Shown here: positions 11,293 to 44,134 of the stretch, piece by piece
Layout: each line of letters opens with the position of its first letter
Position numbering within the stretch: position 1 is the stretch's first letter
IMG/VR virus record: IMGVR_UViG_3300040770_000547
DNA: 64,000 nt
Strand: one strand, 5' to 3'
DNA from: a virus
Notes under the pieces: generated by a model
Seen by the model: the letters and a program-made list of their open reading frames with translations, nothing else
Databases searched by the model: none
Told to the model about the DNA's origin: nothing
Translations under genes and position numbers: made by a program

Positions 11293-11399
11293 TCTTGTCC
11301 AAATATTTCTTTGTCGCTCCCGCGTGTGGGATTGATACAACGGCTTCCCTGAGGATGTTTGTTGTCACTTATAACACGAAATATAAAACCTATATTACA

Positions 11400-12005
11400 A
11401 TGTCAAAATCAAGCACGATTAGTTTAGATGTATTAAATGCATTAAGCCCACAAAAAGGAATGTTGAACGCTTCAGTTAAGGAGCTAGAGAACCAAGTATT
11501 CACTTTTCATTCTATAGTTGCACCTGCTGAGAAAACTGCGGATCTTACTGCTGTCAGCGATGACAACTCGTATGTGAAAGCTCGTTATATCAATTCAAAA
11601 ACAAAGAAGAGTTTCTTGATCCCAATCAGAGGATTATTGAATCTTGGAATTGTTCAGATGGGTACAACTAAAGTGAAAGCATTAGACCCTAAAGCAGAAG
11701 TTGCAAAAGTGAATGATTATTTACTTGAGAAATCAACTGATGGTAAAGGAGTGAGTCTTCCAATGTCTTTCTATGTAGTTTCTGTCAAAGATAGAATCCA
11801 AGAAAGCACTGGGAACATTATGTACCCTCCGTACTGCTACCAAGCGTTCTCTGATGAGATTGAGACGCTTAGAGCGACAGATCCTAAAGCGGATTTGGGT
11901 CCTATCTACCAAAATTATGACTTTATGCAGTCATTATATGCTGGAGAAAGATCTGCTCGCTACGCCACTGCGGAAGCAACTAAAGACATAGTTATCTCAG
12001 TTTAA
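11400..12005 (+). CDS. hypothetical early protein with YPPxCY motif (start moved from 11295)
   Basis: MSKSSTIS start after an A-rich leader; IMYPPYCYQAF. Confidence 0.78.
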   Translation: MSKSSTISLDVLNALSPQKGMLNASVKELENQVFTFHSIVAPAEKTADLTAVSDDNSYVKARYINSKTKKSFLIPIRGLLNLGIVQMGTTKVKALDPKAEVAKVNDYLLEKSTDGKGVSLPMSFYVVSVKDRIQESTGNIMYPPYCYQAFSDEIETLRATDPKADLGPIYQNYDFMQSLYAGERSARYATAEATKDIVISV

Positions 12006-12035
12006 TCCCCAAAGGATTTAATAATGATACTATTT

Positions 12036-12079
12036 ACTCTCATACCAGACCATGTGTCCGGTGTGGGAGTTCTTTTTTT
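12036..12079 (+). terminator. intrinsic terminator closing the early cassette array
   Basis: ACTCTCATACC/GGTGTGGGAGT then T-run. Confidence 0.8.
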
Positions 12080-12222
12080 GTCCTTTTTCAACAATACACC
12101 ACTAAAAAGCACCTGACATTGCACCATTCATCCATAGGTTTATATAACATTACCGTCTTTTTCAACAACAAACTACCCATTTCCTCTTAACAAACTGGAT
12201 TTATACTCGATATCGAGTGTAT

Positions 12223-12471
12223 TTATCTCCCGATTTGTAATAAATAACAGGAAATAAGTGTATTTTTGGTTCGTTGATAACAGGCAAAAGCGATGAGTAC
12301 AAAAAATTGAATAATAACGTTAAGTATAAAAAGGAGATCCTCGATTACTGAAGAAAGTAAGTAAGTCGAATGGGTTAACCCGAGTAAGAACACAACGATA
12401 AAAATATAGTTAATCAGTCCACAGCCTTCCAGGAACAAACACACTTGTTTTTCCATAATTATAAGAGTCAT
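12223..12471 (-). CDS. possible small membrane protein on the minus strand
   Basis: Hydrophobic 82-aa ORF with no competing + ORF; 14-bp palindrome ACTCGATATCGAGT (12205-12218) just past its stop. Confidence 0.3.
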   Translation of the reverse strand: MTLIIMEKQVCLFLEGCGLINYIFIVVFLLGLTHSTYLLSSVIEDLLFILNVIIQFFVLIAFACYQRTKNTLISCYLLQIGR

Positions 12472-12478
12472 TAATCAC

Positions 12479-12893
12479 GTCAGACAAGACCGCGAAGCTT
12501 GTTTGACTGGGTTAGTTACTAAAGTACCAATCCCTGGTCGGCGAAGGGAACTGAGGTTAGAAAAAACTGCGAAGCAGCAGGCTGAATGCAATGTGATGAA
12601 GTACAGTAATCATGTTAGTAAGTCTCTCCCGAGTAGATTGAGTATAACGATTTACAATATTAGCCCCGGATATAGGTTGATTACCTTACCCTGTATCAGA
12701 TAGACACGTTTCATCGTCGGGCAATAACAAAAAGTCCAGAGTGCACATAGGTATATGAAAATTAAGAACCTACCTGCATTAGATTTATTAGAGAATCGTC
12801 TGGCAACAATAAGTCCTGAGTGGATTGCATGATACGTCATACAACCTCGAGCTCTTCATAAGTGGAGAGCTTTACAGGCTTATAGAAAAGTCC
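12479..12893 (+). ncRNA. candidate ~415-nt structured ncRNA (unknown class)
   Basis: 10-bp hairpin at the 5' end, several further stems, no convincing ORF. Confidence 0.55.
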
Positions 12894-13012
12894 GGAATTA
12901 ATCTTGACGCTGATAGTATGTGCACATATAATTTCAGTTGAGGTACGAGAGATAATCATAAATTAAGTTGTACAGCTTGATTCAATGAAAGGGTTCGATT
13001 CCCGAATTTCCG
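12894..13012 (+). ncRNA. tRNA-like element with non-canonical interior
   Basis: GGAATT/AATTTCC ends, GGGTTCGATTCCC T-loop, followed by GCA; no anticodon arm. Confidence 0.45.
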
Positions 13013-13076
13013 CATAATATGGAGAACTTCAGAAGAGCTATCCAAGTTTAATAAACCATTTAATAACCAAACCATT

Positions 13077-13202
13077 ATGAAAAAGATTTTGTTTTTATTC
13101 GTATTGGCTTTCAGTCTGTTTTCCTTTATGGGAGCTAGAGACTATGTGAAGCCTGTTTCAAGTCATGAAGCTGTATTTGTAGGAAGTACTAACTTTCCCT
13201 AA
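13077..13202 (+). CDS. small secreted peptide (41 aa)
   Basis: MKKILFLFVLAFSLFSF signal-peptide-like start; A-rich leader. Confidence 0.55.
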   Translation: MKKILFLFVLAFSLFSFMGARDYVKPVSSHEAVFVGSTNFP

Positions 13203-13386
13203 AGATCTACAACGGTACAATCAAAAAAGCCGAAGTTCCATAAGGAAAGACAAAAGAATTAGAATACTGCAGGCCTCCTTTATAGTTTGGAACGAGCCTG
13301 AAGTTAGAATTAACATTGTGTATAATATCGTTGCAAGCACAGACTTAAAATCTGGATACTGACAACTATACTATATATAAAATCTA

Positions 13387-13433
13387 AAAATACCCTTGAG
13401 AGGCGAGTGCCGTTTAGGACTCAAGGGTATTTT
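13387..13433. terminator. 14-bp perfect hairpin
   Basis: AAAATACCCTTGAG/CTCAAGGGTATTTT. Confidence 0.65.
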
Positions 13434-13501
13434 ATTAACATGGGGAGGCAACTAAGCTTTCTAATATTACGAAGCCGTGTAATAATATGCATTATAAAAG
13501 C

Positions 13502-13584
13502 GGGTAAGTACTCTAGAAAAGGCGTTATTGTTTGTCGCGGTATACAGTCGGCATACAAGATGGGTTCGATTCCCTACCTATCCA
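13502..13584 (+). pseudogene. degenerate tRNA-like element (possible TGT/Thr remnant)
   Basis: GGGTAAG/CCTATCC-A-CA ends, GGGTTCGATTCCC; arms weak. Confidence 0.35.
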
Positions 13585-13589
13585 CAAGA

Positions 13590-13830
13590 TTGTTCATTGA
13601 CGTATTATGAGTTTTTGCAAGACGGGAGTTCGACTCTCCCCAACTCCACAAATCGAAGACCGTGTATGTTGTCGATGGTGTAGCTAGCCGATATACAAAT
13701 AGCCGAACTTATGGGGTTGCCTGGTTTTGATTGCAATACACAAGTTTTACTGAGAATAGTCCCAACTATAACTCCAAAAGTTATACAACTTTTTAGTGCA
13801 GCTGATTTAGAATTAGCAGCCTAAACGAAA
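13590..13830 (+). ncRNA. ssrA: circularly permuted (two-piece) tmRNA
   Basis: 3' end GACGGGAGTTCGACTCTCCCCAACTCCA (13621-13648) precedes 5' end GGGGTTGCCTGGTTTTGA (13713); G3:U70 pair; tag frame ending ...ADLELAA-TAA (13824). Confidence 0.88.
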
Positions 13831-13833
13831 CTT

Positions 13834-13860
13834 GGGGGAGCGTCAATCCCCCTTTCTTTT
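13834..13860 (+). terminator. terminator after tmRNA
   Basis: GGGGGA/TCCCCC stem then T-rich tail. Confidence 0.7.
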
Positions 13861-13879
13861 TACTCTAAACCCCAAACAC

Positions 13880-14221
13880 ATGAAAAACGAAACACTACCT
13901 AATCCAAAGATTACGAGAACTCGTAATTCTGTGAATGTAAATTGGTTATCTGTATATAATGGTAACTCTGATAACGTTATTCAAATTACATCAAAATCCG
14001 AGTTCTTTAATACTCCTCTTGTTTATAAAGTAACAGAGGATTTAATTATACTTAGAAAAGTCACTATACGAGATAACAAAAGAATAGTAGTACCTAAAAA
14101 AGGCCGCGATTCTGAGTTTTATCGCATGAGCATCATAACTAAATTTGAAATCGAAAACAACAGATACGATTTTGAATTTGATGAAGATGATGAGGATGTA
14201 GTATCTGCTTATTATAAGTAG
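13880..14221 (+). CDS. hypothetical protein (start MKNETL)
   Basis: A-rich leader before ATG 13880. Confidence 0.75.
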   Translation: MKNETLPNPKITRTRNSVNVNWLSVYNGNSDNVIQITSKSEFFNTPLVYKVTEDLIILRKVTIRDNKRIVVPKKGRDSEFYRMSIITKFEIENNRYDFEFDEDDEDVVSAYYK

Positions 14222-14249
14222 CATATTTGTAAATTAATTGAGATCTTTG

Positions 14250-15190
14250 AATTGAAATAACGGCTTGGCGAGCGAAACGTGGGCCGTGGTTCAAAGAATA
14301 TACAACACTAGTCCTGGAATTCCTGGCAAGCCTATGAAGATAGGAACTTGGTAGAGGATAGAGGCACGTAATCCTTCATATTGCATCGGTACAAATAAAC
14401 AAAACCGAGCCGCACAACACCGTGATTCTTTTAGATAACGGAATATGATTGACTACAACCGGAGCAGCACGGATTCAAACTAACTGTACTGTGTCGAACA
14501 GGATGAAATCGATTGATGCTAGCCGTAAGGCAACTAACATCTTGTTGCATTTAAAAAGGGACAAGAAATGATAGGGATTCTGCAGGATCCAGCTATTGAA
14601 TAAGGGTAAGAATAATATCCCCTTAGAACCTCGCTGACACCAGCCAAGTCAGGAGAACAAATCGGGTGGCATCCCTCTAAGCATAAGGAGAACAACAATG
14701 CGCATTAGCATAAGGTGTACAACAATGCAAGTACTGTCGGCCAGCCATGTCAGCTTGGACCCAAAAGTTGGAGTTGATAACTTTGCCGGCAAGTACTTTA
14801 ACCATGCTGAAAAGCAATTGCAAGGAGACTATTAGGTACGTCTTCCCAGAGTAACGTGTGCCAACACCCTGGGTATCTTAGGTCAAGGATGCAATACTTT
14901 TCATAAAGTCTATAATCTGCGATAACAGAATGAATACATCAACCGCGCAACAAGGCGAGTTTAGTTTTTTAGTATGTGAGCGGTAGACACAACTACACAC
15001 AACAAACAAAGATTGCTACTTAAGCTAGTTTATGAACAGCGACTCTGACTCGGGCATCTAATGTACCGGCTAACCTTACAGAGAAAAAGGTGTAATCCCT
15101 TGCCAGTATGATTTTTAGGCAAATGCAAACTTCGTCAATGTTCCTTAGCGTTCGGGTATTAAGTATAAGATAGCATAAGCCTAAAAGTTG
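14250..15190 (+). ncRNA. candidate ~950-nt large structured ncRNA
   Basis: No ORF of 60 aa or more in any frame, elevated GC, many stems with GUAA/GAAA tetraloops and a 13-bp long-range helix. Confidence 0.7.
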
Positions 15191-15192
15191 TT

Positions 15193-15271
15193 GGGGCATT
15201 AGGGCATCAAGGGATTGATGTGATGAGCTGTAACGGAACTCAGCAGGCAGGTTCGATTCCTGTTAGCCTCA
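15193..15271 (+). ncRNA. tRNA-like element lacking a normal anticodon arm
   Basis: GGGGC/GCCTC-A ends, GCAGG-TTCGATT-CCTGT T-arm, two internal hairpins. Confidence 0.5.
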
Positions 15272-15287
15272 CTATTTTAACAACATC

Positions 15288-15585
15288 CAACGCTCAAAGG
15301 AATTAAGAGGGCAGGCGTTATAGTGACCCGCCGAGAATGAATGGTCACTGAATTTCTAAGTAGTAATGGTCATCTTAAGATACCTGAGTAGAGTGAGTAG
15401 TAAGAGTGGTGCCTATATGGTATTTCTGAAATGAACGTAGTAGCTCAAAAAGGCAGATGGACTCAATAGAGAAGATTATTATTGAATTTGCGTGTTCGTT
15501 CAGTCCAGTTTGCATAGCAGGATCGCGCACGTTAAAAACTAAGGTAGGAGCAGTCATCAAGTATGGTGATTGTCTCCCCTTTTTT
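15288..15585 (+). ncRNA. candidate ~300-nt structured RNA ending in a terminator-like hairpin
   Basis: AGTGACC/GGTCACT, GGACT/AGTCC and GGAGCAGTCATCA/TGGTGATTGTCTCC stems. Confidence 0.4.
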
Positions 15586-15612
15586 GTATACTAAGAACTA
15601 ACAACAACTAAC

Positions 15613-16107
15613 ATGGAAGAGTATGTAGATTACCTGAAAGGGAAAATTCAAGAATGCGAGCTGGAAGATATGCACGTATCTGTGTCTGTTTACAAAGAAG
15701 TACTAAATACTTATTTAAGTTTCCTTGATGCCGCCAAGCTGAAAGCATCGTTACATAATAAAGTAGGCATAGTTACAGCAGGCTCAAGACAATTTGGTAA
15801 AGCTGCCAGATTTGCAGAGCTCTATGGTATGATGAAACCTGCAGTTCACATCATGGTGGGCAGCAAAGAGATGCATGACAATATGGAAAAAGCACTTATT
15901 GATGCTGTAGAGCATGTAAAGAATGCACCTATTCAAGGAAGATTTACAGACGCTTTTGAAAAAGAACGCGGTATGAGCATAAACGAGTCCATGGCAAAAG
16001 ACAACAGTATAATGATTACTGCTCTTCCAAAGATGACAAAGCCTCTACTCCCGTTGGATAAATATGGCCAACCGCTTGAATTACCTAAATCCAAATACCA
16101 CAAATAA
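15613..16107 (+). CDS. hypothetical protein
   Basis: Co-oriented ORF, A-rich leader. Confidence 0.78.
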   Translation: MEEYVDYLKGKIQECELEDMHVSVSVYKEVLNTYLSFLDAAKLKASLHNKVGIVTAGSRQFGKAARFAELYGMMKPAVHIMVGSKEMHDNMEKALIDAVEHVKNAPIQGRFTDAFEKERGMSINESMAKDNSIMITALPKMTKPLLPLDKYGQPLELPKSKYHK

Positions 16108-26171: not shown

Positions 26172-26636
26172 ATGTCAGGCCATTTATCAACAGAAGAGAA
26201 AGCTTTATTTAAAGCCGAAATAGATGCAATAAGAAGAAAGGATTATGCTTTTTTCATAGAGTTTTTAGAGGCAAACAAAATAAAGTTCAAAAGAACAGGG
26301 GGAACCATTGTGCTAGACGGTATGGTGGTATACGAAGATCTTCAAGTTTCTTTCGGCAGTCCCAAGACGTATCAATACAATCTTGAGACACTAAAAAGAA
26401 AAGTAAGCTCAAATACAGTATTAAGTATAAAAGCTAAGTTTATAGGTGCAAACAGCCTAGGTTACATAACAGGTTTGAATTACATCTTAAATGTACTTCC
26501 ATCTAGTGGTATAACTATATGCAGAAAAGATGGATCAGGTAAATGCGTTTACCAATCCCTAACAGCTTTTCTTGTAAACTGGGATAGCATAGAAAAAATA
26601 ACAAGCGGGAAACCACAAGATCAAGCTAGCCTATAA
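26172..26636 (+). CDS. hypothetical protein
   Basis: Tightly packed. Confidence 0.75.
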   Translation: MSGHLSTEEKALFKAEIDAIRRKDYAFFIEFLEANKIKFKRTGGTIVLDGMVVYEDLQVSFGSPKTYQYNLETLKRKVSSNTVLSIKAKFIGANSLGYITGLNYILNVLPSSGITICRKDGSGKCVYQSLTAFLVNWDSIEKITSGKPQDQASL

Positions 26637-26702
26637 ACGGGGATGCGTGGGAGGATGATAAATAAACACTGTCTGATAAGGGTTCGAATCCCTTTTTCCC
26701 GT
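26637..26702 (+). ncRNA. minimal tRNA-like element (acceptor stem plus T-arm only)
   Basis: ACGGGGA/TTCCCGT, AAGGG-TTCGAAT-CCCTT. Confidence 0.5.
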
Positions 26703-26721
26703 TATTTTAACAACTAAATAT

Positions 26722-38192: not shown

Positions 38193-38471
38193 ATGAAAAA
38201 AATATTATTATTAACAGTCTGTATTCAATTACTAGCATCTTGCGGTTATGCATGTATAGACACCAGTAAACTCGTGGTGATTACCTCAATAGAATCTGCA
38301 GGGGCTAATAAGTGCGACTATTATGGCTACGGTAATTCCGGTATGACTTATAATATTTGGACTAGCGAATTGTTCAAAATGAGAGACATATGTGGTAAAT
38401 TCCAAATAGGCGATACTATTACATTTACAAAAGTAAAAGCATACAAAAACACTTCTGTGAATACCAATTAG
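38193..38471 (+). CDS. lipoprotein
   Basis: MKK-hydrophobic-LASC lipobox. Confidence 0.75.
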   Translation: MKKILLLTVCIQLLASCGYACIDTSKLVVITSIESAGANKCDYYGYGNSGMTYNIWTSELFKMRDICGKFQIGDTITFTKVKAYKNTSVNTN

Positions 38472-38474
38472 AGG

Positions 38475-38692
38475 TGGTAAATATCCGCTAGTACAAACAA
38501 ATTCACATAAGTAACCGGTTAAACTGAGGCCCCTTGAGGGATAGTGTAAGACTGTAGACAAGCCTCTGTGAAAGCAAGCTTCTTTAGTTATCGGATTAAA
38601 CTTTTGATACGGGTCATGCGCAGCCCCGATACAAGACTGGAAGAAACCAGAGCTATTAAAAATTTATTTGATAAGTTCCCTCACATGAGGGC
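38475..38692 (+). ncRNA. candidate structured RNA
   Basis: GAGGC/GCCTC multibranch, CTGG/CCAG and CCCTCA/TGAGGG stems. Confidence 0.35.
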
Positions 38693-38695
38693 TTT

Positions 38696-38878
38696 GGGGA
38701 GGTGATGTAACTGGCAGGCATGCCTGCGGTAATGCAGCAGGTGGTAAGGGCAATAATGAAAGTCATCAGGAATCAGGCCTGATTTTTAAGGTGATGGACA
38801 AGAATGACCCAAAAGTGAAAGCGGCAATTGTACATTACCCGTGAAAGCTCCGTGCAGGTTCGAGTCCTGCTCACCCCA
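38696..38878 (+). ncRNA. expanded tRNA-like RNA (183 nt) with 112-nt variable-region insert
   Basis: Acceptor, D-arm ATGT/GCAT, CCTGC/GCAGG stem with 9-nt loop, T-arm GCAGG-TTCGAGT-CCTGC, ends ACA. Confidence 0.72.
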
Positions 38879-38934
38879 CAAACCACACATTGAAAAACAA
38901 ACACAGTTATGATACATTAAACAGCAAGAGAAGT

Positions 38935-39137
38935 AGGGGCACTGAAAATTTTGTGATATAGGCATCATAATGCACTATCAAGATAACCGGAAGCATAGAT
39001 GAGGAAGGTTAAGTGCCAGGTTTGTTGAGTAAGATAAGCTCTTGTTACGTTGCCTCCGAGTAGGACAGTACGTACTTGAAGGACTAAGTGAACCTTGTAG
39101 AGTAATATCCCTATCTTGAAGGATGGGTGGTTTATAA
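38935..39137 (+). ncRNA. candidate structured RNA
   Basis: GGCACT/AGTGCC closing helix and further hairpins; no ORF on +. Confidence 0.3.
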
Positions 39138-39338
39138 GGCCGGATGGCGTAGAGGCATACGCTAAGGTTATAGGCCTAGAATGGATTATCAAAAAGCCTA
39201 TCTGTAAGACAAGTCAGGTAAATAAGCGGCAAGATAGGATAGTCCAGCAAGTTCTGTGAAAATAATAACTATTATCCCTGTAAAGGTGCTGACTAACACA
39301 GAATATAATTCATGCAGGTTCGAATCCTGCTCCGGCCA
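39138..39338 (+). ncRNA. expanded tRNA-like RNA (201 nt)
   Basis: Perfect GGCCGGA/TCCGGCC acceptor, D-arm GCGT/ACGC, T-arm GCAGG-TTCGAAT-CCTGC, ~150-nt interior, ends ACA. Confidence 0.72.
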
Positions 39339-39370
39339 CAAACAGTATTTTAATTAAACAACTAACAACC

Positions 39371-40264
39371 ATGCTTGAGATAAAAAATCAAAAGACCAAA
39401 ACCACGGCATGTAGAGAAAACGGCAGAAGCGCAGACTTTACAAGCGGTAATTTCATCTTAGGCTGCTCCCACAAAAAAGGAGATACTTATGATAATCCCT
39501 GCTCTTATTGCTATGTAGCAAGATTCGGCAGACAAAAATTGTACGTCAATACTAACACAGATGAGTTGTTGGCAGAGTGCGACAAAGCCATACAAGACCT
39601 GCCTTTCCCTAGAGTACCTAACCAAGTAGATGAGAAATACTACTACGTTGACATCTCTTGTGATACAGATATTAATCTGCATTGGAACGACTATGATTGG
39701 ATTTATGTGTTTGATTATTTCAAGAAGCATCCCAAGCTAGCAGCTACTTTTGCTACAAAATGGGTGAATACAAAACTGCTGGACTATGTTCCTGAAAACA
39801 AAATCAGAGTAAGAATGAGCTTGATGCCTGAGAAAATGAGAGCTATACTTGAAAACGGTACCAGTCCTATAATAAAAAGAGTTCAGTTCCTGGAGAAGCT
39901 TTTCCAAGCAGGATACTCTACGCACATCAATTTCAGTCCAATTATTTACCACGACAAAAAACTGAGCGGGTACAAAGAACTCTTCAACATCATTAACAAC
40001 GAAGTATCAGAGGAGTTTAAAAAACAAGCCGGTCTCGAATGTATTTTCCTTACTCACAATGCTAATCTTCACAAAATAAATTTGGAAAAAGGCCTTTTAA
40101 AGCAAGAAGAAATACTTTGGACACTAGAGAACCAAGAACAGAAAATCAGTCAGTATGGAGGCTCAAACCTGCGGTACAATCAACGTGTAAAGCCAGCTTT
40201 AATTAGAGCTTTTACAAAGTCGGTAAACCAAGACCTCAACATACCTATTAGGTATATATTTTAA
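39371..40264 (+). CDS. spore-photoproduct-lyase-like radical SAM protein
   Basis: GC-x11-CSYCY, DISCDTD, FATK, RVRMSL, GYSTHINFSPI motifs. Confidence 0.78.
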   Translation: MLEIKNQKTKTTACRENGRSADFTSGNFILGCSHKKGDTYDNPCSYCYVARFGRQKLYVNTNTDELLAECDKAIQDLPFPRVPNQVDEKYYYVDISCDTDINLHWNDYDWIYVFDYFKKHPKLAATFATKWVNTKLLDYVPENKIRVRMSLMPEKMRAILENGTSPIIKRVQFLEKLFQAGYSTHINFSPIIYHDKKLSGYKELFNIINNEVSEEFKKQAGLECIFLTHNANLHKINLEKGLLKQEEILWTLENQEQKISQYGGSNLRYNQRVKPALIRAFTKSVNQDLNIPIRYIF

Positions 40265-40267
40265 AGA

Positions 40268-40380
40268 AGATCCAAGCAGCAAGGATGTGCAAATAAAACT
40301 GCAGATATGGCCCCTCTACATGTGGGCTCGTATAAAAGGACGCAGGCTTTTTGGCTAGCAGGAATAGACTGCTTTTTTTA
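40268..40380 (+). ncRNA. structured element ending in a T-run
   Basis: AAGCAG/CTGCTT closing pair, internal TGCA/TGCA and GCCC/GGGC hairpins. Confidence 0.3.
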
Positions 40381-40471
40381 GTTTAAATAAATATTCAATT
40401 CAAAGTAAAGCTATATGGCTTGTAAGGTCATTTCAATAAGAAAATGTAATATCTTTGAAAAGAATTGTTAA

Positions 40472-40588
40472 AAATAAATACACGTGTTGCAAAAGTCGAA
40501 TGCAAGCGGCAAACTTAGAAGGAGTAATTACCCTCGACAGCAGCAGGTGCCTTGTGGATCCCTGGACAAGCGCAACACGTTTATTTTA
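40472..40588 (+). ncRNA. multibranch structured element
   Basis: ACGTGTTGC/GCAACACGT perfect closing helix plus AAAATAAA/TTTATTTT. Confidence 0.4.
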
Positions 40589-40632
40589 TAAATTACCCTG
40601 AATTTATTTACTAACCTATACATCTAACCAAA

Positions 40633-40941
40633 ATGAAAAAATTATGCGCGTCTTTTGCTGTACTTATCCTAGTTAGCTCTTTAACTTATTCTGTAGTTTA
40701 CCTATTAAGCCAGAATCCAAATGCTTTAGAGTGGGAAGCAAATATCCAAAACATATCGATTGCTATTGTTGTCAACATTACCCTTTTTGTATCCTTATGG
40801 ATGTTTGAACAAAAATGGTTTGCAATCACTGAAAGAATTAAAGCAAAGCCAATAAAAAAAGATTTTAATGTTTTTATTGACAAGATTCGAGGAGAAGAAT
40901 ACATGAACGGTAATATAATAAAAACGCAGCTACAAAATTAA
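40633..40941 (+). CDS. 2-TM membrane protein
   Basis: Two hydrophobic segments. Confidence 0.75.
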   Translation: MKKLCASFAVLILVSSLTYSVVYLLSQNPNALEWEANIQNISIAIVVNITLFVSLWMFEQKWFAITERIKAKPIKKDFNVFIDKIRGEEYMNGNIIKTQLQN

Positions 40942-40943
40942 CA

Positions 40944-41144
40944 ATGGAAAAAAGCTATAATTTCAAAATGCAAATGGGGTGGTGTTCAGTTCTTAGCTGG
41001 GCAGCTACTCTATCTCTAGCTTTTAAAGCCCCAGAGAAAATAGATGATTGGATGGTAATTCCATTCGGGGCAATAGTATTTACGATTATCCACTTCAAGA
41101 TGAGTATGCTTATCTCAGAATACAAAGATAAATCAAAAAACTAG
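40944..41144 (+). CDS. small 2-TM membrane protein
   Basis: Two hydrophobic segments. Confidence 0.72.
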   Translation: MEKSYNFKMQMGWCSVLSWAATLSLAFKAPEKIDDWMVIPFGAIVFTIIHFKMSMLISEYKDKSKN

Positions 41145-41300
41145 TCATGGTAGTTACAGGACCACGAACACTAGCAGATTACTTAGCCGTGCAGAAAACG
41201 ATAACAGGTATTCTAGACAGTCGTTACTGCACTTGCCAGATGAAAAAAGACTTGAACGTAAAGCTCAACAGAGTTAAAGAAAAAATAAAAAACCTCGGCA

Positions 41301-41723
41301 ATGGAGATATATAAAAAAGTGGAATATATCCACAAAGATAAAGCGCAAAAAATATATAAGGATATAGCAGAAAAGCAGTTTATTATGGCTTTTTTCAAGG
41401 AAATGCCCTTAGATAAATTAAAAAAGCTGATAAGCTTCAAAGAAACAGATCCAGACAAAGAAGAAGAGTGGAAAAACAAAGATCAGGTAGAGATGCTGTG
41501 CCATCTCAGAGACACAAACAGTCTGCTGCTCTCCTGTCATTTAGAAATAGGCCCTAAGCCTGTTGATGACACCTTCACTCTAAATTTCGCAGAGTGGTTG
41601 CGAAAAGAGTCTTACGATGTTGGAGACAAGTGGTATTACCAGCAAGACAATGAATTATACACCTCGGCTGGAATGCTTTCCATTTACAGGGCAGTATTAT
41701 CTGTTGATAAAAACAAAAATTAG
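41301..41723 (+). CDS. hypothetical protein
   Basis: FAEWL...ELY motif. Confidence 0.78.
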   Translation: MEIYKKVEYIHKDKAQKIYKDIAEKQFIMAFFKEMPLDKLKKLISFKETDPDKEEEWKNKDQVEMLCHLRDTNSLLLSCHLEIGPKPVDDTFTLNFAEWLRKESYDVGDKWYYQQDNELYTSAGMLSIYRAVLSVDKNKN

Positions 41724-41871
41724 CCATGGATCTTAATAGATTCTCTGTAAATTTTATTTGTATGTTTACACAAATAATGTGGTTTTACGTAATGGGGCTT
41801 ACTACTCCGTTTCAAATAAGAAGCTATGTGACTACCTGTGGAGCAAGAATTGAACTAATGCGTTAATAAAT

Positions 41872-42195
41872 ATGAGAACAGAAAAACACACACAGAAAGT
41901 AATTTTGTTGGTAATTTGGGGATTACTAACAGCCGTATTACTTGCATTAAGCTGGTTTCACTTTGCCTGGCAATACCTGGGCATAACAACCGGTATCCCA
42001 AAAAACATAACTAACAATTTTAGCTCAAGTTGGGAAGCTTATAGTTATTTTTTCTCCAGAGACTACGGTACAGGAGGATTAATTTATATCACGCTATTTG
42101 GTTACTATTGGTGGCTTACTAGTAAAGCTTTCTTGTACATACTGAAAAAGCAAAAAAGAGACAGTAAAAAAAGTAAATATTATGGACACAATTAG
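41872..42195 (+). CDS. 2-TM membrane protein
   Basis: Two hydrophobic segments. Confidence 0.75.
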   Translation: MRTEKHTQKVILLVIWGLLTAVLLALSWFHFAWQYLGITTGIPKNITNNFSSSWEAYSYFFSRDYGTGGLIYITLFGYYWWLTSKAFLYILKKQKRDSKKSKYYGHN

Positions 42196-42397
42196 AATAA
42201 AATGTAACGTAGCAAAAATTACTAGTTACGGAAACGGTGGAGGTACAAAAGTAACGTTAATGCCTGTTACAGGTAATAGCGAAGAAAACAAACAGTTTTG
42301 GAACAATGTACCTACTGGAAAGATAGTTCTGCACGTAGATGCTGAACCGTGTGGTTTTGAAAAAGGAGAGTACTATGTAGACTTTACTAAGCTATAA
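42182..42397 (+). CDS. conserved small phage protein (SEENKQFW..PTG...YYVDFT family)
   Basis: Recognisable motif, function unknown. Confidence 0.8.
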   Translation: MDTIRIKCNVAKITSYGNGGGTKVTLMPVTGNSEENKQFWNNVPTGKIVLHVDAEPCGFEKGEYYVDFTKL

Positions 42398-42678
42398 TGT
42401 ACACTCCTTTAATTATTGAGAAGAAAGACATACTGGCCCCAGGTACCGTTATATTAAGCGGTAATTTCAAATTGGTCAAGAAAATAGAAGATTTAAACGA
42501 GTTTTGGGCAGTGTTAAAAACACAAAAATCGTTTTATGCAAGGCATAGAATGTACCCCACCTCCTTCTTTTTTTCTTGGACATTAAGAACAATAGACGCC
42601 TGGATAAAGGCCGGTTACTTCTGGACTGTTGCACCTTGCGGGAAACCAAAGCGCGCGAATTTCCAGTTAAATAAATAG
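42397..42678 (+). CDS. hypothetical protein
   Basis: TAATG overlap. Confidence 0.75.
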   Translation: MYTPLIIEKKDILAPGTVILSGNFKLVKKIEDLNEFWAVLKTQKSFYARHRMYPTSFFFSWTLRTIDAWIKAGYFWTVAPCGKPKRANFQLNK

Positions 42679-42685
42679 CCCTTAA

Positions 42686-42880
42686 CTTACCGAGATGATA
42701 AAAAAAACTAAATTAACGAAGTTTTATGTATTCTGTGGAACTTGGTAAGTAAAGTAAGCTTGCTGCTGTTTTCGGTTGAAGCCTGAGAATCAGCGAGGAC
42801 GATGGACAGGCAACCGTCAAAACTCGGAGTCCTCATTACGGTAGCGAAACGGCTCTGGGCACGAAATCCAGGGCCGTTTT
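42686..42880 (+). ncRNA. candidate structured RNA (four hairpins)
   Basis: 10-, 7-, 6+5- and 12-bp stems in series. Confidence 0.45.
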
Positions 42881-43064
42881 ATATTTAATACAATTGTAAA
42901 ATAATTCAGGTCATGATGCAAAACATGTACATTGCTTATATGAGAGGTTTTGAAAACAAACCTAAGCCTAAATATATCAAAGGAAGCCTTGTCGAAAAAG
43001 AGTACGATAAAGGCAAAAAAGACAGAGTAAATAAATTACCTAACAGGTATTTAAAGTCTTAAAT

Positions 43065-43204
43065 GGAGGCATAGCTGTTAAGATTGCATTCTAACACAGT
43101 AAGTGGGTCGCCGATGAGCTGATATTACTGCACAACATGCGCGCTAAAGATGTAAGTGATCAGTTATGTACGCGGCAAGGGAGGTTCGATTCCTCCTGTC
43201 TCTA
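43065..43204 (+). ncRNA. expanded tRNA-like RNA (140 nt)
   Basis: GGAGGCA/TGTCTCT acceptor, GGAGG-TTCGATT-CCTCC T-arm, ends ACA; no canonical anticodon arm. Confidence 0.55.
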
Positions 43205-43225
43205 CAAACAATTAAATAAGAAACA

Positions 43226-44134
43226 ATGAGAGAAAATGAAAAAGAAAAGCAAGGTCATGCTCTTAAATTATCAGAGCTTGTAGTAGGTGAATGGTATGGT
43301 TGTAGCAGTTGGGAATCAAACATAAAAGCAAAATACAGTATTCATTCATTGTTTGATGCAGATAAATTCGACTATACGGAGAGAACAAATAAAGACGGCA
43401 GTATTAATACTAGACCTGATTGGTTAAGAATATACAGTTATTCAAGGTTTTCTAAAACAACCATCGAAACCGGGCCTGCAGATTCAACAGAAACTCCTTG
43501 GTATGTGTACGTTCCGAACAAAAGTAGTGAATATCCGCAACTTGAATTTTGGAGAAGAGGAACTGGATTAGATAAACGAGGAAGTTGGTCTATAGGTCAG
43601 TATATAAAACACGATAGAACTGTACATAAATTTAGACCGGATAACTGTATTGCAAGATCCTACGAATCTTTTTTAGAAGACGTCTATTTACCTTATTTAA
43701 AAAGGTTTATTAGAAGTGATGCACAGACTTACTGCTACCCTTTTCAGTTAAAAGAAGGAGATAAGTTTAAATTGACCTCTTCTATATCTGCAAAAGTTGA
43801 AGAGTTAAGGAGAATAGTGAGTATTACTCATATCGGCCTAATTTATTACACTACAGACTCTTTACTCGCTAAATCCATGAATAACTTAGTTAGTTTAAAG
43901 TTATGTAATAATACATCACTTAGCGAAAAAGCCATAGATTTTCTAAAAAATACTCCAATTGAAAACTACCATGTTTTTAACCCGTATTCACCTGGAGAGT
44001 GTTTTGGACCTGGTATAATACCAATGATTACAACACCTGCAGAACCAAAAGAAATAATATACCCTAAAATGCCGAACAAAGGGCTAAGAAAAATGCAGGC
44101 AAAACCACTTTTAAACATAACAAAAACAATTTAA
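43226..44134 (+). CDS. mosaic hypothetical protein
   Basis: 302-aa ORF, no catalytic motif recognised. Confidence 0.78.
   Translation: MRENEKEKQGHALKLSELVVGEWYGCSSWESNIKAKYSIHSLFDADKFDYTERTNKDGSINTRPDWLRIYSYSRFSKTTIETGPADSTETPWYVYVPNKSSEYPQLEFWRRGTGLDKRGSWSIGQYIKHDRTVHKFRPDNCIARSYESFLEDVYLPYLKRFIRSDAQTYCYPFQLKEGDKFKLTSSISAKVEELRRIVSITHIGLIYYTTDSLLAKSMNNLVSLKLCNNTSLSEKAIDFLKNTPIENYHVFNPYSPGECFGPGIIPMITTPAEPKEIIYPKMPNKGLRKMQAKPLLNITKTI

Follow-up and report, generated by a model that had tools for sequence, protein, structure and literature searches.

The 64,000-nucleotide (64,000-nt) stretch of viral DNA analysed here, from IMG/VR record IMGVR_UViG_3300040770_000547 and hereafter called the window, contains between 12.0 and 15.6 kb a modular non-coding RNA island of ~3.6 kb, which consists mostly of conserved folded RNAs together with a two-piece transfer-messenger RNA (tmRNA) and three tRNA-like elements (TLEs). 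We propose that the TLEs would be excised by host tRNA enzymes, giving the large RNA that we call beta a defined 3' end, and that the island may be a fixed feature of a cold-water phage family, always placed after a protein gene that we call gene X; we put the probability of this reading, taken as a whole, at about 0.5. The original prediction for the region, made from the letters alone, had described a 3-kb RNA island; the order of elements that it gave is real, and its boundaries have been corrected to those stated above. The RNA modules of the island are as follows.

12081-12650, plus strand: alpha, a conserved structured non-coding RNA (ncRNA) and the most widespread part of the island.
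12651-12888, plus strand: alpha2, a conserved ncRNA separable from alpha.
12893-13013, plus strand: TLE-A, a degenerate tRNA-like element in which the T-loop is UUCGAUU, the T-stem has 3 pairs and 6 of the 7 acceptor positions pair.
13442-13584, plus strand: TLE-B, a 143-nt tRNA-like RNA with G3:U70 and A73.
13589-13824, plus strand: two-piece (permuted) tmRNA, matching RF04321 at 50.8 bits (gathering score 47).
14226-15191, plus strand: beta, a large structured RNA with a conserved 5' half (beta1, ~14296-14710) and a variable 3' half.
15192-15272, plus strand: TLE-C, cloverleaf-shaped and without an anticodon loop.
15273-15546, plus strand: gamma, a conserved ncRNA, the core of which, CAGATGGA-TCAATA, is invariant in six of the six aligned relatives.

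The relatives compared were the contigs L013 (gene X 82%), L014, L015/L016, L017, L018-L020 and L021/L022/L024, together with L001 of the window clade. In alpha, alpha2, the tmRNA, beta and gamma, long stretches are 86-96% identical to L013, compared with ~78% for gene X and ~65% for the gene downstream of the island, and alpha, beta and gamma are thus at least as conserved as the genes that flank them. In tblastx comparisons of the long stretches no reading frame stands out: all six score alike, and alpha is therefore not coding. Only two credible protein genes are found within 12006-15612, at 13077-13202 (41 amino acids; aa) and 13880-14221 (113 aa), in agreement with the small open reading frame (ORF) and the one further ORF that had been predicted inside the island; the sole frame of at least 100 aa in this interval is 13832-14221. 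Base pairs changed on both sides number 29 of the 115 predicted in alpha (14.0 in shuffles, 0/500; 4-10 in slid controls) and 36 of 153 in beta (12.0 in shuffles, 0/500; 2-9 in slid controls), and the 143-nt model of TLE-B has seven such pairs in 40, against 2.2 in shuffles (1/500); the covariation of alpha, of beta and of TLE-B, which flanks the tmRNA, is well above the controls. One helix of beta has eight compensated pairs in L018, and the folding z-scores were -3.3 for alpha plus alpha2 and -1.75 for beta. A hairpin of gamma also covaries, and, because its G-U pairs fall on the plus strand, the strand of the RNA could be assigned. The long stretches had been predicted to be structured RNA, and identity to L013, tblastx and covariation together bear this out: they are conserved, non-coding and structured.

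Alpha, beta and gamma match no Rfam family in a search of 11800-16000 with permissive filters at E <= 10, and a permissive Rfam search of the island, 12880-13590, 38300-43300 and the related loci returned only the tmRNA and chance-level hits. None of the three has a paralogue elsewhere in the window, and the conserved motifs of alpha, sought there as a repeated promoter motif, are not repeated.

TLE-C lies directly after beta in all three lineages that have beta (the window clade, L013 and L018) and is found in none of the four that lack it. Both long RNAs had been predicted to run directly into a TLE, with the adjacency kept in relatives; this holds for beta and TLE-C in the three lineages and fails for alpha/alpha2 and TLE-A, because L013 has no TLE-A. 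In the most distant of the three lineages, the gene X protein is only ~55% identical to that of the window. TLE-C folds into four arms, comprising a 6-pair acceptor (UGGGGC/GCCUCA), a long first arm, a second arm with a 4-pair stem and a loop of 8-10 nt, and a 5-pair T-arm; the T-arm core, CAGG-UUCGAUU-CCUG, is the same in the window, L013 and L018, with variation in the pair that closes the stem. When the window is compared with L013, G-C to U-A and G-U to G-C changes are seen in the acceptor and a G-C to A-U change in the second arm; the changes in the first arm are likewise compensatory. The L018 element is different-looking, again with four arms, and has the same T-arm and nearly the same 3' strand. 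The only Rfam match of TLE-C is a weak one to tRNA-Sec (21.4 bits, E 0.74).

A further terminator follows ~100 nt after TLE-C in L013, between TLE-C and gamma, and in L018 a terminator-like hairpin stands just after TLE-C; beta plus TLE-C is therefore a conserved unit, from which gamma is separate. Beta had been described as a 950-nt structured RNA, and a structured RNA it is, but the two halves listed above replace the single unit that was listed: beta aligns with its counterpart in L013 with two large indels, L018 has only beta1, and the beta1 profile matches L013 and L018 only. No downstream 5' acceptor strand, such as a permuted form would have, was seen on reading by eye after TLE-A or TLE-C. 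An exact-pattern scan of IMG/VR with the T-arm of TLE-C found one unrelated 287-kb phage only, in which the string lies within a YrlA-like RNA, and we take this match to be a coincidence. The YrlA-like RNA (L012:1493-1557, in a jumbo phage record with terminal repeats) scores 43.7 bits, below the gathering score of 69, and has a loop-closed acceptor stem; the T-arm/acceptor string common to it and TLE-C is 22-23 nt long.

The permuted tmRNA that had been predicted is confirmed by its score, which exceeds the gathering score of RF04321. In its acceptor, CAACUCC (13641-13647), with A73 at 13648, pairs with the downstream GGGGUUG (13713-13719) to give G3:U70; the tag ends AADLELAA, and the UAA stop is at 13822-13824. 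The tmRNAs of L021 and L022 score 60.2 bits to RF04321, and that of L013 gives a partial match of 42.8 bits. The tag of L013 has a 3-nt deletion that keeps the frame and ends MVA, compared with LAA in the window (L013:5750-5782 = window 13790-13824), which suggests that the tag is under coding constraint yet fast-evolving. An exact-pattern scan of IMG/VR with the tmRNA T-arm found nothing.

In the window, 4 nt lie between the end of TLE-B and the tmRNA match, and in L013, too, the two are adjacent. The TLE-B acceptor strand GGGGAGG (13442) pairs with CCUAUCC (13577-13583); the T-arm and both strands of the acceptor do not vary among the window, L001 and L013, the interior being only ~54-78% identical. 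In its T-arm region, CAAGAUGGG...CCACAA, TLE-B is similar to the neighbouring tmRNA. The expectation of a TLE just before the tmRNA is thus borne out in the window and in L013, with an altered 5' start: the strand at 13502, where the element had been thought to begin, is not kept in L013, and the invariant partner is the strand at 13442. The expected persistence of this arrangement across relatives is seen in two of the three tmRNA-bearing lineages. We found no literature report of an alanine-identity tRNA-like RNA directly upstream of a two-piece tmRNA.

None of TLE-A, TLE-B and TLE-C is a decoding tRNA. All three go uncalled by default ARAGORN and by the Rfam tRNA model (RF00005), relaxed ARAGORN makes doubtful calls only, for TLE-B and TLE-C, and CCA is not encoded in the elements. 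Each has the T-loop UUCGAUU, on a T-stem of 5 pairs in TLE-C and of 3 pairs in TLE-A and TLE-B, and in each acceptor 6 of 7 positions pair. The T-loop GTTCGANTC occurs in 13 copies in the window, all on the plus strand, against 1.05 expected (a 12-fold excess), and the copies in the island are at 12993, 13564, 13628 (in the tmRNA) and 15251. TLE-A lies within a lineage-specific 165-nt segment (12888-13052) that is missing from L013, and it has no comparative support. A near-consensus sigma-70 match (TTGACG/17 nt/TATAAT, 11/12) is present at 12904-12932, inside TLE-A and upstream of the 41-aa ORF; if this promoter were used, transcripts would start inside TLE-A.

Searches with nhmmer matched alpha in L013, L014, L018, L019 and L020 and, partially, in L021, L022, L024 and L015 (module-map stretch 12003-12650). 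Alpha2 is 92-96% identical to its counterpart in L013 and occurs only there and in the window clade. The region had been read as a single 415-nt RNA at 12479-12893, a unit that does not survive comparison: conservation begins at ~12081, alpha is divided from alpha2 by an indel hot spot at 12650/12651, where L001 has an extra 105 nt and L013 an extra 255 nt, and L018 lacks alpha2. A minus-strand ORF at 12223-12471 (82 aa, hydrophobic) was considered as a gene and rejected, as its frame stays open for only 51 codons in L013, is in pieces in L018 and goes uncalled in L014, and its amino acid identity (80%) is not above the nucleotide identity. Gamma is matched strongly in L013 and L014; L015, L017 and L022 also have its core.

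The island follows homologues of gene X (45-87% identity) in every relative compared, and in each the order is gene X, a terminator hairpin and a gene-poor stretch, which takes the form of a gap of 1.9-3.8 kb without called genes in L013-L017 and of ~0.8 kb of gene-poor sequence before the next ORFs in L021/L022. Gene X, the terminators and the small protein genes are placed as follows.

11295-12005, plus strand: gene X, upstream of alpha in all relatives compared; homologues of 201-207 aa.
12036-12080, plus strand: intrinsic terminator of gene X, a stem and T-run kept in seven of seven aligned relatives, with 7 pairs changed on both sides.
13077-13202, plus strand: 41-aa peptide gene, the frame of which is intact in L013 and L001, with both termini conserved.
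13392-13435, plus strand: terminator-like hairpin and U-rich tract, the stem being CCCUUGAG/CUCAAGGG in the window and, at the corresponding position of L013, CCCUC/GAGGG.
13834-13862, plus strand: intrinsic terminator after the tmRNA, found by terminator scan, identical in L001 and differing by one loop base in L013.
13880-14221, plus strand: 113-aa protein gene, a lineage-specific cargo.
15547-15586, plus strand: intrinsic terminator at the end of the island, with a stem of 13 pairs and then CCUUUUUU; in L013 the stem is compensated and a T-run follows.

The last of these lies 27 nt ahead of the next gene (ATG 15613). These four conserved terminators speak against a single polycistronic ncRNA transcript, as had been proposed for the island.

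We infer the following scheme from the anatomy of the island and its variation among relatives. Alpha and gamma would be ancient conserved RNAs, between which lineages swap cargo in the form of the two-piece tmRNA, the large RNA beta, small protein genes and tRNA-derived elements, and the island would be transcribed as several terminator-bounded units rather than as one precursor. The TLEs appear to keep the acceptor/T-arm half of a tRNA, the parts needed for decoding having been lost. Bacterial RNase P requires a stacked acceptor and T-arm with a T-loop, and the canonical T-loop is used by both RNase P and tRNA enzymes; it is from this requirement that excision of TLE-C and TLE-B would follow, with host RNase P acting on the 5' side and RNase Z, or RNase E plus exonucleases, on the 3' side. 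Excision of TLE-C would set the 3' end of beta and yield TLE-C itself as a free small RNA; in the window, it would also part beta from gamma. If TLE-B were excised, the acceptor piece of the tmRNA would be freed on its 5' side, and RNase P would have another site at the coding piece. On these grounds RNase P and RNase Z could plausibly trim both beta and the tmRNA, the latter on its 5' side.

Several observations weigh against this scheme. The acceptors of the three TLEs, taken alone, pair at chance level (P = 0.45, 0.45 and 0.84), compared with 0.014-0.07 for the three true tRNAs tested in what is a low-powered test, and TLE-A and TLE-B combine mismatched acceptors with their 3-pair T-stems. 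TLE-A is dispensable, since L013 does without it, and L021/L022 have a tmRNA with no TLE upstream. Gamma, with a folding z-score of -0.27, folds no better than shuffles, and the covariation rests on 3-7 sequences, the same ones from which the structures were derived. In addition, alpha and gamma occur in lineages without any TLE, as do some tmRNAs, so that processing at TLEs is a local feature rather than the organising principle of the island. The chance-level acceptors also favour the view that the TLEs have no present role and are either pseudogenes of tRNAs or tmRNAs in decay or scars of recombination, in a region of gain and loss of tRNA-type genes; it would account for TLE-A, a lineage-specific 165-nt indel with a short T-stem, for the failure of default ARAGORN and of the Rfam tRNA model to call any of the three, and for the distant relatives that have no such elements. 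We regard this as unlikely, because in TLE-B and TLE-C the T-arm and 3' strand are invariant amid 20-45% divergence around them and the helices are kept by compensatory changes, and because TLE-C survives in three lineages over which gene X falls to ~55% identity.

The arms of TLE-C are, however, maintained by compensation beyond the needs of a cleavage signal, which would be understandable if the TLEs were themselves functional products, either chargeable tRNA mimics or decoys or sponges for host tRNA-binding or tRNA-cleaving proteins. Their adjacency to long RNAs would then arise from the clustering of ncRNAs and from shared promoters, and release of the neighbouring RNA would be a side effect. 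TLE-B fits such a role well: G3:U70 together with A73 is the alanine identity rule, the adjacent tmRNA has the same set, and the T-arm regions of the two are alike. Similar elements also lie between or before protein genes that have no long RNA nearby, such as that at 26637-26703, and bacterial tRNA mimics with functions of their own are known, namely skipping-rope RNA and YrlA. Against this, the elements have no anticodon loop and match neither YrlA, skipping-rope RNA nor the other known mimic families at E <= 10, G3:U70 is not kept in the TLE-C of L013, and the strict linkage of beta and TLE-C would go unexplained; we therefore consider this explanation possible but on the doubtful side. The strict version of the original prediction, in which the whole 3-kb island is one polycistronic precursor cut at each TLE by a new, obligatory maturation system, draws on the fact that all elements share one strand and one orientation, and on L013, where beta begins ~15 nt after the tmRNA terminator, leaving no room for a promoter and suggesting read-through. 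We judge it quite improbable, since conserved terminators, of which four hairpins lie inside or at the edges of the island, split it into several units, two protein genes stand among the RNAs, the modules come and go independently of one another, and alpha, gamma and the tmRNA occur without a TLE in other lineages.

All long reading frames of the window are on the plus strand, and its genes include those for a thymidylate synthase, an ATP-dependent DNA ligase and an SF1 helicase. Homologues of gene X have invariant motifs that include MYPxYCY and KARYxN; no Pfam or PHROG family matches gene X, and its structural model is good (predicted local distance difference test score 82) but found nothing with Foldseek against the PDB at E <= 0.001 and hence gave no functional clue. 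The 41-aa peptide has a hydrophobic, signal-like N-terminus and the conserved C-terminus FVGSTNFP. Relatives of the 113-aa ORF occur in near-identical contigs only (92-97% DNA identity, many with frame errors), and it is absent from L013. Four public sequencing runs contain the island, all of them DNA, from ice and sediment metagenomes. Comparison of the island with public and deposited phage genomes by blastn gave no match, and the protein encoded at 15613-16107, used as an anchor, has no relatives in IMG/VR. A related 64-kb viral record has a completeness rating of 37%, pointing to a phage genome of ~170 kb.

The window has five clustered tRNAs at 81-1048 (ARAGORN and Rfam). The fifth of them, at 348-421, was identified by Rfam (44.6 bits) and missed by default ARAGORN, and relaxed ARAGORN gives it an irregular anticodon loop. 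Relaxed ARAGORN together with reading by eye revealed further elements beyond the island.

899-972: cloverleaf with the anticodon CCA and a 3-pair D-stem, called by relaxed ARAGORN only and ending 3 nt before tRNA-Phe (976-1048); it may be an unusual tRNA-Trp.
26637-26703: mini tRNA-like element of 67 nt with a 7-pair acceptor and a 5-pair T-arm.
38696-38879: tRNA-like element beginning GGGGAGG.
39138-39339: tRNA-like element in which a perfect 7-pair acceptor (GGCCGGA/UCCGGCC) encloses an insertion of ~125 nt; it also has a D-arm-like stem.
43065-43205: tRNA-like element of 140 nt with a 7-pair acceptor, including G-U pairs, and a 5-pair T-arm.

The last four lie in ORF-free gaps, and in three cases a start codon follows 19-32 nt after the end of the element. 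That at 26637-26703 comes directly after the stop of the ORF at 26172-26636 and ends 19 nt before ATG 26722. The elements at 38696-38879 and 39138-39339 share an ORF-free gap of 900 nt (38472-39370), in which they are preceded by stretches of ~225 and 258 nt, and the ATG of a spore-photoproduct-lyase-like gene (39371-40264) comes 32 nt after the end of the second; no relative of 38440-39370 was found in the one related viral record searched. The element at 43065-43205 ends 21 nt before ATG 43226, and a terminator-like hairpin lies upstream of it at ~42845-42880. Counting 899-972, 12893-13013, 13442-13584, 15192-15272, 26637-26703, 38696-38879, 39138-39339 and 43065-43205, at least eight elements sit at junctions between two ncRNAs, between an ncRNA and a gene or between two genes. 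Such non-decoding TLEs might form a genome-wide system of punctuation, comparable as a model to mitochondrial tRNA punctuation, through which host RNase P and RNase Z would carve large RNAs, the tmRNA and short-leader mRNAs, with alpha and beta as new classes of the GOLLD/ROOL kind. We regard this extended scheme as speculative and rather unlikely, and the genome-wide pattern itself is only a lead.

GOLLD and ROOL are large (0.5-0.9 kb), highly structured ncRNAs of phages and prophages, typically found beside tRNA islands; tRNAs are sometimes present in a linker of GOLLD, and its co-transcription with tRNAs has been suggested. Both are abundant and cage-forming, and their function and their recurrent link to tRNAs are unexplained. 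The island resembles GOLLD (RF01998) and ROOL (RF03087) in its large covarying structure and its phage context beside tRNA-type genes, a likeness of kind and not of membership, as neither model matches at E <= 10 in 11800-16000 or at the gathering score in 8 related loci. GOLLD and beta each combine a conserved with a variable part, the conserved part being the 3' region in GOLLD and the 5' half in beta. The neighbours of GOLLD and ROOL are real tRNAs, whereas those in the island are non-decoding TLEs. The description of the island as an undescribed system was therefore overstated, since RNAs of the GOLLD and ROOL families had already been reported beside, or containing, tRNAs.

In eukaryotes, the 3' ends of the long ncRNAs MALAT1 (which yields mascRNA) and MEN-beta are made by RNase P at a tRNA-like element. 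MALAT1-mascRNA and beta/TLE-C share an arrangement in which a long ncRNA is directly followed by a tRNA shape without a working anticodon arm; MALAT1-mascRNA is, however, eukaryotic and nuclear and has no homology to beta/TLE-C, for which the likeness is one of substrate-like shape only. In bacteria, the spacer tRNAs of rRNA operons and the tRNA cluster of phage T4 are cut as tRNA structures from multi-RNA precursors by RNase P and 3' enzymes, so that the neighbouring RNAs come apart, and the stable RNAs C and D of T4 have tRNA-like ends and no known decoding role. The punctuating elements of rRNA operons and T4 are mostly true tRNAs, whereas those of the island cannot decode and have large RNAs as neighbours. 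YrlA (RF02553), with its permuted tRNA-like domain and Ro60-binding stem, is unmatched in the island.

Among 133 distinct phage tmRNAs, 53 have been reported as two-piece, and these come chiefly from marine or aquatic phages. The tmRNA of the island belongs to the same family, to which the window and L013 add an alanine-identity tRNA-like RNA just upstream, and this arrangement offers a separate lead for the biology of ribosome rescue in phages. For the large RNAs, the island adds three further conserved classes, and beta plus TLE-C provides a clean, evolutionarily kept case in which the tRNA partner has no decoding role and has retained the half that enzymes recognise, making testable the idea that the link between such RNAs and tRNAs serves RNA maturation or stability rather than translation. 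What is new here, in relation to the systems already known, is the three RNA classes outside Rfam, their non-decoding tRNA-like partners and the conserved unit of a large RNA with a tRNA-like element.

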